A DNA stretch of 18,381 nucleotides from a virus (Duplodnaviria; Heunggongvirae; Uroviricota; Caudoviricetes), in the IMG/VR virus record IMGVR_UViG_2734482784_000001; one strand, written 5' to 3'. Positions 1,164 to 18,381 of this stretch are shown here, piece by piece. The position numbers and the translations under genes were made by a program. The stretch's first letter is position 1; each line of letters begins with the position of its first letter. Below the pieces are notes generated by a model. That model was not told the DNA's origin, searched no databases, and was given only the letters and a program-made list of their open reading frames with translations.

Positions 1164-3278
1164 GTGAATTTACAATATCGTCCAGTTCGGATGCCGGCTG
1201 CATTTCTGAAGATAAGGCATTTCGGTTCTCGTATTTTCCCCCTCATGCTCGTCAGTCCTGCGCGTAGTAAGAGACAGGACACTCACACTAATTTGTGTGG
1301 GCATGCTGTGCCTATGGGGGCAGGGAACTCAGTCCCGTGGGATCCGCTGGTGGCACCGTATGTTATTGAGCCTATGAACTGCCTGGCCTCGCGTGAATAC
1401 GACGCAGTGATATTTGTTGGCCCGGCACGAACCGGCAAGACTATCGGCCTGATTGACGGCTGGGTGATTTACAACGTGATTTGCGATCCTGCTGATATGC
1501 TGATCATTCAGATGACGGAGGAAAAAGCCCGCGAACACTCCAAAAAACGACTCGCCAGAACGTTTCGCGTCAGCCCGGAAGTGGTCAGTCGCCTGAGTCC
1601 GAACAAAAATGACAACAACGTTTATGACAGAACATTCCTTGCTGGCAACTACCTGAAAATCGGCTGGCCGTCAGTCAATATCATGTCTTCATCAGATTAT
1701 AAATGCGTGGCGCTGACGGATTATGACCGTTTTCCGGAAGATATTGATGGTGAGGGGGATGCCTTCTCTCTTGCCTCAAAACGTACCACCACATTTATGT
1801 CCAGTGGTATGACGCTGGTGGAGAGTTCCCCCGGCAGGGATGTGAAGGATGTGAAATGGCGACGGACTTCACCGCATGAGGCTCCACCAACCACGGGGAT
1901 CCTGTCGCTCTATAACCGTGGCGATCGCCGTCGCTGGTACTGGCCCTGTCCACACTGTGGTGAGTATTTTCAGCCCTGCGGCGATGTGGTTGCTGGTTTC
2001 CGTGATATTGCCGATCCTGTGCTGGCAAGTGAGGCGGCTTATATTCAGTGTCCTTCCTGTTCAGGACGGATTTTGCCTGAACAAAAACGCGAGCTGAACG
2101 GACGTGGGGTCTGGTTAGCCGCCAGTATCAATATCAAACCGGGCCATGATTATTACTTTTATATCCGCAGTGTGAACACCGTTGGCAAATCGGCATTCGT
2201 GGAGGCTGTTGGTCAGCCGAGTGATGACGCATCCGGCTATCTGGATTTTTTCAAAGGCGAGATAGGGAAAACCCATCTGGCTCAGGAGCTGTGGACGCAG
2301 ATTGATAACGGTCAGCTTGCGCCTGACCTGGCTGAAATCAGGACATCCATTACGGATGTCAGCAATGAAATCACACAGACCGTCAATAAGAAACTGGAAG
2401 ACCAGAGTGCAGCGATCCAGCAGATACAGAAGGTTCAGGTTGATACAAATAATAACCTGAACAGCATGTGGGCCGTGAAACTGCAGCAGATGCAGGACGG
2501 ACGCCTTTATATTGCGGGTATCGGTGCCGGTATTGAGAATACGCCAGCAGGAATGCAGAGTCAGGTGCTGCTGGCGGCAGACAGGATTGCGATGATTAAT
2601 CCTGCGAATGGCAACACAAAGCCGATGTTTGTTGGTCAGGGTGATCAGATATTCATGAACGACGTGTTCCTGAAACGCCTGACGGCTCCCACCATTACCA
2701 GCGGCGGTAATCCTCCTGCATTTTCCCTTACACCGGACGGGCGACTGACGGCGAAAAATGCGGATATCAGTGGCAGTGTGAATGCGAACGCCGGGACGCT
2801 CAACAATGTCACGATAAATGAAAACTGTCGGGTTCTGGGAAAACTGTCTGCGAACCAGATTGAAGGCGATCTCGTTAAAACAGTGGGCAAAGCTTTCCCC
2901 CGGGACTCCCGTGCACCGGAGCGGTGGCCATCAGGGACCATTACCGTCAGGGTTTATGACGATCAGCCGTTTGACCGGCAGATTGTTATTCCCACGGTGG
3001 CGTTTCGTGGCGCTAAACATGAGCGGGAGAATAACGATATTTATTCGTCATGCCGCCTGATAGTGAAGAAAAACGGTGCTGAAATTTATAACCGTACCGC
3101 GCTGGATAATACGCTGGTTTATACAGGTGTTATTGATATGCCTGCTGGTCGCGGTCACATGACGCTGGAGTTTTCGGTATCAGCGTGGCTGGTAAATGAC
3201 TGGTATCCCACAGCCAGTATCAGTGATTTGCTGGTTGTGGTGATGAAGAAATCCACAGCAGGTATCAGTATCAGCTGA
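1164..3278 (+). CDS. chimeric ORF: terminase large subunit (lambda gpA family) N-terminal region fused in frame to a lambda J-like host-specificity protein C-terminal region; deletion derivative
   Basis: Continuous 704-codon frame. Residues about 1-321 carry a Walker A box ([12 protein letters not shown]) and a CPHCG…CPSC zinc-ribbon-like motif as in lambda gpA. Residues from about 322 (nt about 2127) onward, starting near …[28 protein letters not shown] and including …[30 protein letters not shown]…, match the C-terminal third of lambda J as I recall it. The start is uncertain: GTG at 1164 (longest frame) or ATG at 1191, neither with a good ribosome-binding site. Stop TGA at 3276-3278. Confidence 0.7.
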
Positions 3279-7000: not shown

Positions 7001-7786
7001 TTCTTTAGCGGAGCTGAGATACTGTTAAATGGTAATGACGGCACGGTTCAACTCAAAACAGGTGCTGTTAACGGGGCTACAGCGCAGGCGCTCACTATCA
7101 ACAGGAATGAGGTTAACTCAACTGTTGATTTAACCCTTACAAAACAATCAGGGACTGGCAATCGTTTTGTTTTACAGAACTCAGGTAATGCAGAACTACC
7201 GTTTTCTGTCAGGGTGTGGGGTTCCAGTACTCGACAAAACGTTTTTGAGGTTGGCACGTCTGCTGCGTATCTGTTTTATGCGCAAAAAACGTCAGCAGGC
7301 CAGTTGTTTGATGTAAATGGCGCTATTAATTGCACAACGCTGAATCAGTCATCAGACCGCGACCTTAAAGACGATATTCTCGTTATCAGCGACGCGACGA
7401 AAGCAATCCGTAAAATGAACGGATACACCTACACGCTCAGGGAAAACGGGATGCCTTATGCTGGCGTTATTGCACAGGAAGTAATGGAGGCGATACCAGA
7501 AGCTGTGGGATCGTTTACTCATTATGGTGAAGAGTTGCAAGGTCCGACCGTTGACGGCAACGAGCTACGCGAAGAAACGCGCTATCTTAATGTTGACTAC
7601 GCCGCCGTGACGGGCTTACTTGTTCAGTTCGCCCGTGAAACAGATGATCGCGTTACCGCGCTGGAAGAGGAAAACACAACGCTACGTCAAAATCTGGCAA
7701 CAGCAGACACCCGGATCAGCACTCTGGAAAATCAGGTAAGCGAACTGGTTGCACTTGTCCGGCAGTTAACAGGAAGCGAACATTGA
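4010..7786 (+). CDS. stf: mosaic side tail fibre: lambda Stf-like N-terminal region with Ala/Ser-rich repeats, divergent distal region, C-terminal intramolecular-chaperone (peptidase S74-like) domain
   Basis: GGGGGAA then ATG at 4010. N-terminus MAVRISGVLKDGAGKPIQNCTIQLKARRNSTTVVVNTV… matches lambda Stf as recalled. Central region carries fibre-type motifs (…KKTGDTMTGDLTIKKG…). The C-terminus (…SDRDLKDDILVISDATKAIRKMNGYTYT…RYLNVDYAAVTGLLVQF…ALEEENTTLRQNL…) resembles the self-cleaving chaperone domain of endosialidase or T5-type fibres. Stop TGA at 7784-7786. Confidence 0.85.
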   Translation: MAVRISGVLKDGAGKPIQNCTIQLKARRNSTTVVVNTVASENPDEAGRYSMDVEYGQYSVILLVEGFPPSHAGTITVYEDSQPGTLNDFLGAMTEDDVRPEALRRFELMVEEVARNASAVAQNTAAAKKSASDARTSAREAATHATDAADSARAASTSAGQAASSAQSASSSAGTASTKATEASKSAAAAESSKSAAATSAGAAKTSETNAAASQKSAATSASTATTKASEAATSARDASASKVAAKSSETSAASSAGSAASSATAAGNSAKAAKTSEMNADNSAQAAADSQTASANSATAAKKSETNAKNSESAAKVSETNAKASENKAKEYLDKVGGLVSPMTQYDWPVVTGNESFYIKIAKLSDPGSNNCHVTLMVTNGGDYGSPYGNIDFIEISARGLPSSLTADNVSRYLSIRRLGPTGLINSMQMRYGLVKDDGFIEVWAFQRAFINGAKVAVLAQTARTELYIPDGFVKQTAAPSGYVESPVVRIYDQLNKPTKADLGLSNAMLTGAFGLGGSGISTNGKMSDVEILKALRDKGGHFWRGDKPTGSTATIYSHGSGIFSRCGDTWSAINIDYSTAKIKIYAGNDARLNNGTFSINELYGSANKPSKSDVGLGNVTNDAQVKKTGDTMTGDLTIKKGTPSVFLRADSGVTALRFYTGDNTERGIIYAGPNTDSLGEVRIRAKTAGGTSGGDLVVRHDGRVEVRDLTVAYKIKSRTIEIANTDTDSSATTLSIYGVQHTPLVLTRSGSSENVSIGFKLDNMNPKYLGIDTNGDLAFGESPDQKQNSKLITQAKLDKGLTIGGQLAFKGTTAFSAVATFSAGIAGAIEPENIDGQTVNLNNLTIIKSDAGAVKYYICPSSAGGANITNKPDGIAGNFLLRVESTRKVRDSDYANMQTLINSDTKRIYVRFVVNGNWTAWSQVVVSGWNQDITVRSLTTSSPVKSGGGRIDVLGSTSDYSKMDCFVRGFDSTGNSLAWALGSSAGVSKMLSLKNFFSGAEILLNGNDGTVQLKTGAVNGATAQALTINRNEVNSTVDLTLTKQSGTGNRFVLQNSGNAELPFSVRVWGSSTRQNVFEVGTSAAYLFYAQKTSAGQLFDVNGAINCTTLNQSSDRDLKDDILVISDATKAIRKMNGYTYTLRENGMPYAGVIAQEVMEAIPEAVGSFTHYGEELQGPTVDGNELREETRYLNVDYAAVTGLLVQFARETDDRVTALEEENTTLRQNLATADTRISTLENQVSELVALVRQLTGSEH
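4370..5010 (+). repeat. low-complexity Ala/Ser/Thr/Lys-rich imperfect tandem repeats inside stf
   Basis: Reiterated motifs such as AAKTSETNA, AAKKSETNAKNSESAAKVSETNAKASENKAKE and SASTATTKASEAATSA at the protein level, with correspondingly GC-rich repetitive DNA. This region generates several long spurious ORFs in other frames. Confidence 0.6.
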
Positions 7787-7960: not shown

Positions 7961-8057
7961 GGTAAAACATATAAATTCTATAATTAGATGTATCTTTCCA
8001 TTTACGGCAAGGAAGGGGGCTTGGAAGACGTAAAGCATCTCACACCGAGATTATTTT

Positions 8058-8648
8058 TTATATGTCAGGTGTCTGAAGTTTTGCTTTGGCTCTTAAAATG
8101 GTTTGCCGCGAGGTTTTGAATTCCCGGGCAATGGCACTTATACTTACACCTGACTTAATTCGTTCGAATACCACCTGTTTCTGTTCTTCATTTAACACAG
8201 GTGGTCGACCAAAACGTTTCCCTGCGCCGCGGGCTCTTACTATCCCGGAATGAGTGCGTTCAAGTAAAAGGTCTCGTTCAAATTCAGCGACTGCTGAAAT
8301 TACGTGCATCATCATTTTTCCTGTTGGACTGGTCAGGTCAATGCCCCCCAATGCTAAGCAATGCACTCTGATACCTGTTTCGGTCAGTTGTTCCACTGTT
8401 TTCCTGATATCCATTGCATTACAACCAAGGCGATCCAGTTTTGTCACAATCAATTGATCACCACATTTCAGGCGAGCAAGCAACCGGTTAAAACCAGGAC
8501 GCTCACTGGTTGCTGCTGAGCCGCTAATGTGTTCTTCGATTATTTGCTGAGGTTTGATTTTAAAACCTGCACTTTCGATTTCCCGGCGTTGATTTTCGGT
8601 GGTCTGATCCAGCGTTGATATCCGACAGTAAGCAAAAATTCGAGACAT
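8058..8648 (-). CDS. pinQ: serine recombinase of the DNA-invertase family (PinQ/PinR type), 196 aa
   Basis: ATG at 8648-8646 on the minus strand, TAA at 8060-8058. Product [31 protein letters not shown]…[45 protein letters not shown] has the resolvase/invertase N-terminal catalytic domain and a C-terminal helix-turn-helix. It converges on the stf and tfa remnant, as pinQ does relative to tfaQ in K-12. Confidence 0.9.
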
Positions 8649-8964
8649 AGTGAGACTCTATACGAAATTGGTGTTCATATCATAATGCATCTCAGAAAAT
8701 AATTTTGATTATTTTTGTGCATATTTGTATGTACACGTTCGAAAATAAACGAATGCGTATGCAACCCCGTAACTTTGGTGAGACCCAAAATCGATTTTGT
8801 GAAAAATGGCTTTAACTCGGTTTGTTTTTCGAGTTCCGGGCGGACTCAAGGAAGAAGAATAGTGTTGCGTGTTATTTTAACCAGATTTCAAGTTGTTTGG
8901 TCGTGGAAAAGTGGAGCAAAATGTTGTTAAAGTGGAAAAATGATAAAAAAGTAAGTTTATTATA

Positions 8965-9198
8965 TTACATTTTACCATTTAAATTTTGGTTGTCTTTAAG
9001 AACTGATATCGCTGTTTGTAATAATTCTTTGTTATCCAGCCATGATTTTTTCTTTATGTTTCCTTCAATGTAATCAAGCAATGTTCTGGTATTGATAGGT
9101 CTTCCCTGTTTTGCTACTTCCACTACAGCATCCCCTAGGATAATTCTTACTTCAGGAAGCTGCGCAGGGAACCACTTTAGGGTGTCTTTTTATTTCAT
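8965..9198 (-). pseudogene. ydfK: ydfK/ynaE-family prophage cold-shock gene with an ochre stop at codon 3
   Basis: The minus strand reads ATG AAA TAA AAA GAC ACC CTA AAG TGG… giving M K * K D T L K W F P A Q L P E V R I I L G D A V V E V A K Q G R P I N T R T L L D Y I E G N I K K K S W L D N K E L L Q T A I S V L K D N Q N L N G K M *. This is a 77-codon YdfK-like frame whose third codon (plus-strand 9190-9192) is TAA. The ORF is absent from the six-frame track because of this stop. Confidence 0.7.
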
Positions 9199-9959
9199 GA
9201 AGATATTCCTTAAAATATTATTGATTTTCATTGCGATATTGTATGTCTGATTCAGGATATGTTGACTTATACATCGGTTTTGTCTGGGTTATTGGATATG
9301 CCAATCCCTAATTTTATTAGGGCATGACTAAAAATGCTGAATATGATAAGGAGAGAAGTGATTATCAGTATGCTGTTCATATAGCCTCGAATTAGTAATG
9401 TGTTATATATGATATAGTTGACAATTTTATCTTGGGTGTTCTTAAAGTTCGTAGATAAACATTGTCGTTTCAGGTATACAGGAATGCTAACAGGTGGCGG
9501 CAAAAATCAGGCGGTTTATGGCGCAATCTGAAGTGGCAACTGCAAACTATCTTATGCAGAGACTCTACACGGATTGGGTTTAAAAGTATACATAGATAAC
9601 AGTTTTTATCTGAAGAAGAAAAATATCAAGGTGATATAGCCTATATGCCTTTGATGTGGAGGAATGAATGTGATGGGAGTGATGTATCTGAATAGTTGAA
9701 AAACCGCAGACACACCTTATGCAAGAACGTGCTGCGGTTGGCTGGTAAATTTTTCGATAGTGCGAGTATTGAATGATTTCCAGCCGTTATTGATTTTACG
9801 CGTAAATCCATGAAAAAACTACTTATCTGTTGGGGAGTTTTTTGGGGCATATATGGGACAGAAATAGGCCCCAGATAGACACTGAGATCGAACTTAGGAT
9901 GCTTTTAAAAAAATGCAACTATCTGAAAAAACCTAGAAAACGCCAAGGAAACCACAGGA

Positions 9960-9990
9960 TGGGAAAAAACACCTGTGAATTATGGATTTC
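9960..9990. other. approximate prophage right-end junction with the chromosome, inside ydfJ
   Basis: The ydfJ frame opens only at ATG 9982; two codons upstream is an in-frame TGA (9976-9978), and the expected N-terminal part of the transporter, including its first helix, is missing. Upstream DNA is AT-rich phage-type sequence. The exact crossover point cannot be set without the other prophage end. Confidence 0.4.
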
Positions 9991-11265
9991 CAGTTATATT
10001 CGCTCGGCGCAGCGTTAGTGTTTCATGAAATATTTTTTCCTGAATCATCAACGGCAATGGCGTTAATTCTGGCAATGGGAACCTACGGTGCAGGTTATGT
10101 GGCGCGTATTGTCGGAGCATTTATTTTCGGCAAAATGGGCGACAGAATAGGGCGTAAAAAAGTGCTCTTTATTACCATCACCATGATGGGGATCTGTACC
10201 ACCTTAATTGGTGTGTTACCGACCTATGCACAGATTGGTGTTTTTGCCCCCATCTTGCTGGTGACGCTGCGTATTATTCAGGGATTGGGTGCAGGTGCGG
10301 AAATTTCCGGTGCCGGTACGATGCTGGCGGAATATGCGCCAAAAGGTAAGCGCGGAATTATCTCCTCATTTGTGGCTATGGGAACTAACTGCGGAACTTT
10401 AAGCGCAACGGCAATCTGGGCCTTTATGTTCTTCATTCTCAGTAAAGAGGAACTGCTGGCGTGGGGATGGCGTATACCGTTCCTGGCGAGCGTTGTCGTG
10501 ATGGTCTTTGCTATCTGGTTGCGTATGAATCTGAAAGAAAGCCCGGTTTTTGAGAAGGTTAACGACAGCAACCAACCGACAGCAAAACCTGCACCTGCTG
10601 GTAGCATGTTCCAGAGCAAATCCTTCTGGCTGGCAACAGGGCTGCGTTTTGGTCAGGCGGGTAACTCAGGTTTAATTCAGACTTTCCTTGCGGGCTATTT
10701 AGTGCAGACGTTATTGTTTAACAAAGCAATTCCAACATATGCATTGATGATCAGTTCGATTCTCGGCTTTATGACCATTCCGTTCCTTGGTTGGTTATCC
10801 GATAAAATTGGTCGCCGGATCCCGTATATTATTATGAATACCTCCGCGATTGTGCTGGCATGGCCAATGCTTTCTATCATCGTAGATAAAAGCTATGCCC
10901 CGAGCACCATTATGGTTGCACTGATTGTGATTCATAACTGTGCGGTGCTGGGATTATTTGCTCTGGAAAATATTACCATGGCAGAAATGTTCGGCTGTAA
11001 AAACCGCTTTACCCGGATGGCTATTTCTAAAGAAATTGGTGGTCTTATCGCTTCCGGTTTTGGTCCTATCCTGGCGGGTATTTTCTGCACCATGACGGAA
11101 TCCTAGTATCCGATCGCCATTATGATCATGGCATATTCAGTGATTGGTTTAATCTCTGCGCTGAAAATGCCAGAAGTGAAAGACCGTGATTTAAGTGCGC
11201 TGGAAGACGCCGCGGAAGATCAACCGCGTGTTGTAAGAGCTGCGCAACCTTCCAGAAGTCTGTAA
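9982..11265 (+). pseudogene. ydfJ: MFS (metabolite:H+ symporter family) transporter gene, 5'-truncated by prophage insertion and interrupted by an in-frame amber codon
   Basis: A 374-codon frame (MDFQLYSLGAALVFHEIFFPESS…GDRIGRKKVL…FCTMTES) stops at TAG 11104-11106. The same frame continues for 52 further sense codons (YPIAIMIMAYSVIGLISALKMPEVKDRDLSALEDAAEDQPRVVRAARPSRSL) to TAA 11263-11265. 374+1+52 = 427 codons, the size I recall for K-12 YdfJ. Confidence 0.8.
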
Positions 11266-18163: not shown

Positions 18164-18381
18164 AAATAAATTAGCCTGATGGCCTGAACTACTGGGCCAT
18201 TAGGGTATTGGGTTATGCTATTTGTCATCCTTTTATTTACGATAATGCAGAGGTGATTTACAGAATTAAACACTTTTTTATCCGCTGATTTTGTTTTAAA
18301 TCACAATGTTATCTCAGAGATGACTCATAACTTCGGATTTCTATGAAAATATTGACGTAATTTTGGGTAATGACTCCAACT

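Follow-up and report, generated by a model that had tools for sequence, protein, structure and literature searches.

Genes and features at the prophage edge

The window, by which we denote the entire stretch of DNA analyzed here, is contig JUCE01000088.1 (18,381 bases) of the assembly GCA_000798535.1, an accession for which no match was found in the literature. This contig is indexed in two samples, perhaps derived from the same isolate. The locus is situated where a Qin-like defective prophage borders the chromosome: a tail-fibre gene, pinQ, ydfK and ynfT are followed by the chromosomal genes ydfJ-ydfI-ydfZ-rspR-ydfG-dcp, and the same gene order is annotated in Escherichia coli HS and ES2. 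Within the prophage, ydfK is flanked by ynfT/ynaM on its upstream side and by a pin recombinase gene on its downstream side, all on the same strand. The features of this region are the following (coordinates are those of the window):

8058..8648, minus strand: pinQ-like serine recombinase, 196 aa, intact, the next gene downstream of ydfK (HS/ES2 annotation)
8965..9198, minus strand: ydfK frame of 77 codons, intact except for codon 3, with the TAA stop at 8967..8965
9121..9136, minus strand: candidate internal restart, the only plausible one, consisting of AGGGG (9136..9132), an 8-nt spacer and the GTG of codon 26 (9123..9121), with a 52-residue product
9190..9192, minus strand: ochre TAA at ydfK codon 3, in place of the invariant Ser codon TCA, with 9191 as the variant base
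9207..9212, minus strand: Shine-Dalgarno-like TAAGGA, 8 nt upstream of the ydfK ATG, unchanged; putative ribosome-binding site
9267..9380, minus strand: ynfT, encoding the small YnaM/YnfT protein of 37 aa, intact, upstream of ydfK (PF23676, E 6.5e-28, full length; HS/ES2 annotation)
9982..11106, plus strand: ydfJ remnant, with the 5' end removed by the prophage and an amber TAG at 11104-11106 (TGG in HS and ES2)

Homology to the uninterrupted ydfJ of strain PAR begins only at window position 9976, so that approximately 26 N-terminal codons were lost to the prophage insertion. The ydfJ amber is present in all sister contigs examined. The identical amber also occurs in two unrelated complete genomes, PAR and 21KM1392; both have a ydfJ unsplit by any prophage, and their identity to the window across this region is 97.6%. 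The presence of the amber in these two genomes reflects either a recurrent mutation or recombination that transferred an old allele. In the window, ydfJ had already been beheaded by the prophage, and the amber thus falls in an already dead gene.

Several other traits of the window pertain to the history of the prophage and of the contig. A 704-codon ORF (window 1164-3278) joins the N-terminus of the terminase (GpA ATPase) to the C-terminal domains of the tail-tip protein J, and HS annotates both halves of this fusion as partial genes; thus, the bulk of the intervening prophage has been lost through a large internal deletion. Relative to GCA_025336585.1 (L034), the window contains 11 clustered SNPs at 7043-7707, within the segment of the tail-fibre gene (1,258 residues) that codes for the C-terminal part, and is identical in the flanks, which looks like a recombination patch. 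The first 15 bases of the window, AATATAGGGGCAAAT, are an IS2 terminus and match the annotated IS2 in ES2 (L002:2174). At the other end, window 18366-18381, GGTAATGACTCCAACT, is an IS1 terminus that matches L005:1669 and L034:17013, with a full IS1 present next to GGTAATGACTCCAACT in the long contig L034 (GCA_025336585.1) of the same lineage. Being bounded by IS elements at both ends, the window is an IS-to-IS contig, and the draft assembly to which it belongs comes from an IS-rich lineage.

An ochre codon in the ydfK frame

Direct reading of the minus strand at 9198..9187 gives ATG AAA TAA AAA. With the upstream sequence included, the minus-strand reading is TAAGGA ATATCTTC ATG AAA TAA AAA GAC ACC..., with the ATG at 9198..9196, and the translation of 9198..8965 is MK, a stop, KDTLKWFPAQLPEVRIILGDAVVEVAKQGRPINTRTLLDYIEGNIKKKSWLDNKELLQTAISVLKDNQNLNGKM and the terminal stop. 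An earlier note on this DNA had described a minus-strand frame opening with ATG AAA TAA, and both the coordinates and the description prove correct. Base 9191 is T on the plus strand and G in the relatives and sister contigs, which corresponds to a change from TCA to TAA on the gene strand. The note had also anticipated that TCA (Ser) would be the expected codon and that a single C-to-A change would account for the stop; indeed, TCA occupies this position in the relatives, in the sister contigs and in the genomes matched by the control query described below. Apart from codon 3, the translated frame is identical to YdfK annotated in E. coli HS and ES2 (WP_000836768.1), including all 74 sense codons that follow the TAA, and once codon 3 is restored to Ser, the protein is a K-12-type YdfK. 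In-frame ATGs occur at codons 1 and 77 alone, so that, as had been claimed, no alternative in-frame ATG is available before the final codon.

A functional member of the YdfK/YnaE family (PF27475) is expected to possess an uninterrupted frame, and the frame in the window is interrupted by TAA at codon 3. Judging from the sequence, the window locus is, by descent, a member of this family that would now be a pseudogene or a null allele. The presence of a sense codon at this position in the close relatives, together with the lack of any further difference within the gene, is what is expected of a recent nonsense pseudogene. The ydfK sequence is AT-rich and Lys-rich, and the Ser3 codon TCA is one substitution away from both TAA and TGA. 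By our computation, of the 693 single-base changes that ydfK can undergo, 42 (6.1%) yield a stop; hence, a single private nonsense SNP at some place in a genome is to be expected and is statistically unremarkable.

The stop is located inside the true coding sequence

The true start of ydfK is the ATG of the 77-codon frame. A search with the Ser3-restored protein identified 94 family members (best E 3e-42), and 17 of these, including sequences from Enterobacter, Salmonella and Limnobaculum, were aligned. The N-terminus, MKSxDTLxWxPxQLP, is conserved in the 17 aligned homologues, down to 53% identity, and residues 1-25 comprise the best-conserved part of the protein, with M1, S3, T6, L7, W9, P11, Q13, V17, L21 and A24 invariant throughout the alignment. 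The local copies of Pfam and NCBIfam contain no model of the YdfK family, and precomputed PF27475 (YnaE) matches were used instead, along with our own alignment. A PDB sequence search with the family profile detected no relative of YdfK.

The second line of evidence is the mass of the intact protein. YdfK from E. coli BL21 colonies was detected by top-down mass spectrometry at 8772.78 Da, unmodified (PMC5594050), and the calculated monoisotopic mass of the 77-residue protein, including Met, is 8772.80 Da. Given the conserved N-terminus and this match of the masses, the stop takes the place of an invariant serine and is situated within the genuine coding sequence. The earlier note had recognized that its reading would fall if the reference gene started downstream of the TAA; N-terminal conservation and the intact mass both place the start upstream. 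The window DNA has retained the full 77-residue length of the frame and still encodes the MKSxDTLxWxPxQLP block, which is located 3' of the stop and hence is untranslated.

In many public assemblies, a 52-residue ydfK starting from GTG26 is called despite an intact 77-codon frame. These calls are a systematic start-site miscall, for which the upstream AGGGG is probably responsible. For the purposes of annotation, the 52- and 59-residue ydfK calls in public data should be regarded as either mis-called starts or early knockouts.

Distribution and age of the TAA allele

The closest sister of the window, GCA_016390245.1 (L035), differs from it by one base over 17,028 aligned bases, and this base is 9191, which is also the only window position that differs from all five sisters compared over the same 17,028 bases. 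Codon 3 is TCA in every sister contig that carries ydfK. The rest of ydfK, the TAAGGA and the upstream leader, including ynfT, match the sister genomes exactly. Each sister contig carries 0-3 private SNPs over the same 17 kb, that is, about 1e-4 per site. Most of the records of this lineage are labelled E. coli and some Shigella flexneri. A further substitution, P268L in YdfI (CCG to CTG; window 12156), distinguishes the window from HS, ES2, PAR and 21KM1392 and is common to the sister contigs. An exact-protein look-up with this YdfI allele led to the contig of the window and to many sister contigs of almost equal length in other assemblies. From these sequence comparisons, the ydfJ amber and YdfI P268L are older lineage markers, and the ochre is the isolate's one private change in the region.

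The earlier note had paired the ochre with the ydfJ amber. Both nonsense lesions exist as sequence, but they are unrelated, given that the amber is lineage-wide and the ochre is private. Linked decay at the prophage edge was considered and rejected because the ydfJ amber and YdfI P268L occur in all sister contigs examined, whereas the ochre occurs in the window only.

The rarity of the allele was assessed with a 41-mer query centred on the variant, such that every 28-base seed must span the variant base. The TAA version matched none of the 5,426 complete E. coli genomes; the TCA version matched 2,794 of the same genomes, in 3,345 places, and the null result for TAA is therefore no filter artefact. 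A 521-base region around the locus matches 2,806 of the 5,426 genomes, at best with one mismatch (99.8% identical). Exact-pattern scans of the GTDB species representatives and the JGI metagenomes did not detect the TAA allele either, and no second independent TAA contig was found among the 52- and 59-residue gene calls, of which the 52-residue calls mostly represent intact genes. Thus, the window is the only contig known to carry the TAA allele. Import of the TAA from a paralogue, whether via gene conversion or mis-assembly, was likewise rejected because none of the 5,426 genomes contains a TAA copy.

Other early disruptions of ydfK do occur in nature: TGA at codon 3 (CP178317.1), TGA at codon 7 (CP178314.1), TGA at codon 9 (ABVPNR010000015.1), TAG at codon 13 (ABZFLH010000022.1) and a frameshift in AP027588.1. 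The existence of independent early nonsense alleles in other genomes implies that loss of the gene is tolerated. These alleles were found via the 59-residue call, which arises only when a lesion lies upstream of codon 19, so the early position of the stops is no evidence of a hotspot or of selection. In CP178314.1, three substitutions occur within 9 bases (GAC ACC CTA to GAT ACC TGA), and CP178317.1 additionally has a 1-base deletion in the Shine-Dalgarno region and truncated pinQ and ydfJ calls. These two may be error-prone assemblies or heavily mutated strains.

A probable recent private knockout and the alternatives

Both ydfK and its paralogue ynaE are strongly cold-induced, and the proteins have been detected after refrigeration (PMC5594050). 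The two genes are also up-regulated in long-term stationary phase (PMC7406224), and a pull-down with NudC at 16 C recovered YdfK (PMC10654059). The ydfK leader has been described as an RNA thermosensor in K-12 (PMC4444293, in a passage citing Raghavan et al. 2011), and the leader in the window is identical to that of the sister contigs and HS. An Rfam scan of window 8000-10200 yielded only sub-threshold chance matches, and Rfam contains no model for the ydfK leader. No biochemical function or knockout phenotype of ydfK or ynaE is reported in the cited papers.

Against this background, the window very probably contains a recent, isolate-private loss-of-function allele of ydfK, a cold-shock gene of a Qin-like defective prophage, that arose via a C-to-A transversion. 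The TAAGGA, its spacing and the leader are unchanged, so ribosomes should still load on ATG-AAA-TAA. They would then synthesize fMet-Lys and terminate at the UAA, which is read by both release factors, such that, barring suppression, full-length YdfK of 8.77 kDa would not be produced. The 74 untranslated codons would probably reduce the stability of the mRNA or leave it open to Rho. A sequence scan found no terminator-like site between ydfK and pinQ; a polar effect on pinQ, the only candidate gene for polarity, is conceivable. When the leader and start region were folded in the wild-type and mutant forms at 37 and 15 C, the changes in Shine-Dalgarno/AUG accessibility were small, and their direction varied with the length of the construct. 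A residual product, if there is one, would stem from weak GTG26 initiation, comprise 52 residues and probably be inactive.

This residual product is the basis of one alternative to a null allele, namely, a hypomorph in which GTG26 behind AGGGG serves as a start codon, either following termination at codon 3 or irrespective of it, and the resulting 52-residue protein (calculated mass 5968.20 Da) retains some function. AGGGG, 8 nt and GTG indeed make a Shine-Dalgarno-like element at good spacing, gene callers choose GTG26 in many intact ydfK genes, and the 52- and 59-residue products of the frame still match PF27475. Nevertheless, we consider retained function to be very unlikely. The start is not conserved, V26 being replaced by L or I in the diverged members of the 17-homologue alignment, and the product would lack residues 1-25, with all the invariant positions from S3 to A24. 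The AlphaFold model, for which the family alignment served as input (mean pLDDT 76.8), has predicted helices at residues 15-30, 37-47, 51-54 and 57-75; most of the first helix of this predicted bundle would be missing along with the conserved N-terminal block, which suggests that the GTG26 product is probably inactive. Furthermore, the top-down mass spectra, in the passages of PMC5594050 considered here, include YdfK at the 77-residue mass only and no shorter form. A different possibility is that the isolate really carries TCA and that the draft consensus is wrong in calling A. The rarity of the allele is compatible with such an error: over 17,028 bases, 9191 alone separates the window from its nearest sister contig, and none of the other genomes and metagenomes searched contains TAA. 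The draft assembly is fragmented, with contigs ending in IS elements, and the variant base adjoins an A-run (AAATCAAAAG to AAATAAAAAG), where a flow-based platform could lose the C and overcall the A-run with the length unchanged. Still, this explanation appears unlikely because real private SNPs in the sisters, at 0-3 per 17 kb or about 1e-4 per site, are more frequent than the typical short-read consensus error, which favours a real mutation over an artefact. The perfect match of the remainder of the contig to the closest sister also speaks for a clean assembly, and among the 5,426 genomes, there is no TAA-bearing paralogue from which a mis-assembly could have arisen. On this evidence, the change at 9191 is, with high probability, a real mutation.

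The mutant start region could also be active in its own right. With TAAGGA, 8 nt and ATG AAA TAA, the region has the anatomy of a two-codon minigene which, behind a good Shine-Dalgarno sequence and a cold-induced promoter, might act in the manner of lambda bar and of synthetic two-codon minigenes, through drop-off of fMet-Lys-tRNA or through ribosomes held on the leader, with an effect in the cold on mRNA stability in cis or on tRNA-Lys in trans. This anatomy agrees with the criteria for the most toxic minigenes given in the review PMC8708949 (two codons, a UAA stop and a Shine-Dalgarno sequence upstream), and strong cold induction of ydfK transcripts is reported in PMC5594050 and PMC10654059. 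Such activity nonetheless seems scarcely credible to us, given that the ydfK mini-ORF is present in a single chromosomal copy and that the data contain no sign of selection for the TAA allele. Minigene toxicity also requires limiting peptidyl-tRNA hydrolase. According to PMC8708949, toxicity arises on overexpression, and one minigene that conforms to all the criteria left growth unslowed. We assign similarly little, although marginally more, credence to a broader proposal, which we regard as highly improbable. In this proposal, the mutation would have turned a strongly cold-induced, well-translated start into a chromosomal AUG-AAA-UAA minigene that, in the cold, ties up tRNA-Lys or ribosomes to a measurable extent, or changes how stable the ynfT-ydfK(-pinQ) transcript is, and so causes a cold-specific phenotype; in a milder version, selection would recurrently favour early ydfK knockouts in which the leader and ynfT are spared.

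We therefore return to the private loss of function. As ydfK is a dispensable passenger in a decaying prophage, the event most likely represents neutral decay rather than adaptation. The ochre in ydfK is biologically ordinary, a very recent private knockout or, less likely, a base-call error, and its general importance is small. Its practical value stems from the relationship to the sister genome: GCA_000798535.1 is a natural ydfK-null, and over the 17 kb compared, nothing else separates it from its closest sister, so that the two make a ready near-isogenic pair for seeking a phenotype of YdfK, an abundant cold-shock protein.

Comparison with known systems

Known two-codon minigenes, namely, lambda bar and the leader mini-ORFs of LEE1 and axe-txe, likewise consist of a Shine-Dalgarno sequence, AUG, one sense codon and UAA. 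Unlike a conserved leader element, the mini-ORF in the window arose by mutation inside a gene, and any regulatory or toxic role is hypothetical. The other natural ydfK nonsense alleles are independent events that similarly fall within the first 13 codons, at different bases or positions and in unrelated genomes.

The paralogue ynaE (b1375, P76073) of the Rac prophage belongs to the same family, PF27475, has ynaM/ynfT and a pin recombinase as neighbours, and is cold-induced like ydfK (PMC5594050); gene conversion between ydfK and ynaE has been documented (PMC4444293). Unlike ynaE, the window gene adjoins ydfJ, which identifies it as the Qin-type copy. The closest counterparts, accordingly, are ydfK (b1544, P76154) of the Qin cryptic prophage of E. 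coli K-12 and the ydfK genes of HS and ES2, which share the locus order and 76 of the 77 codons with the window copy and differ from it at codon 3, where they have TCA and the window has TAA.
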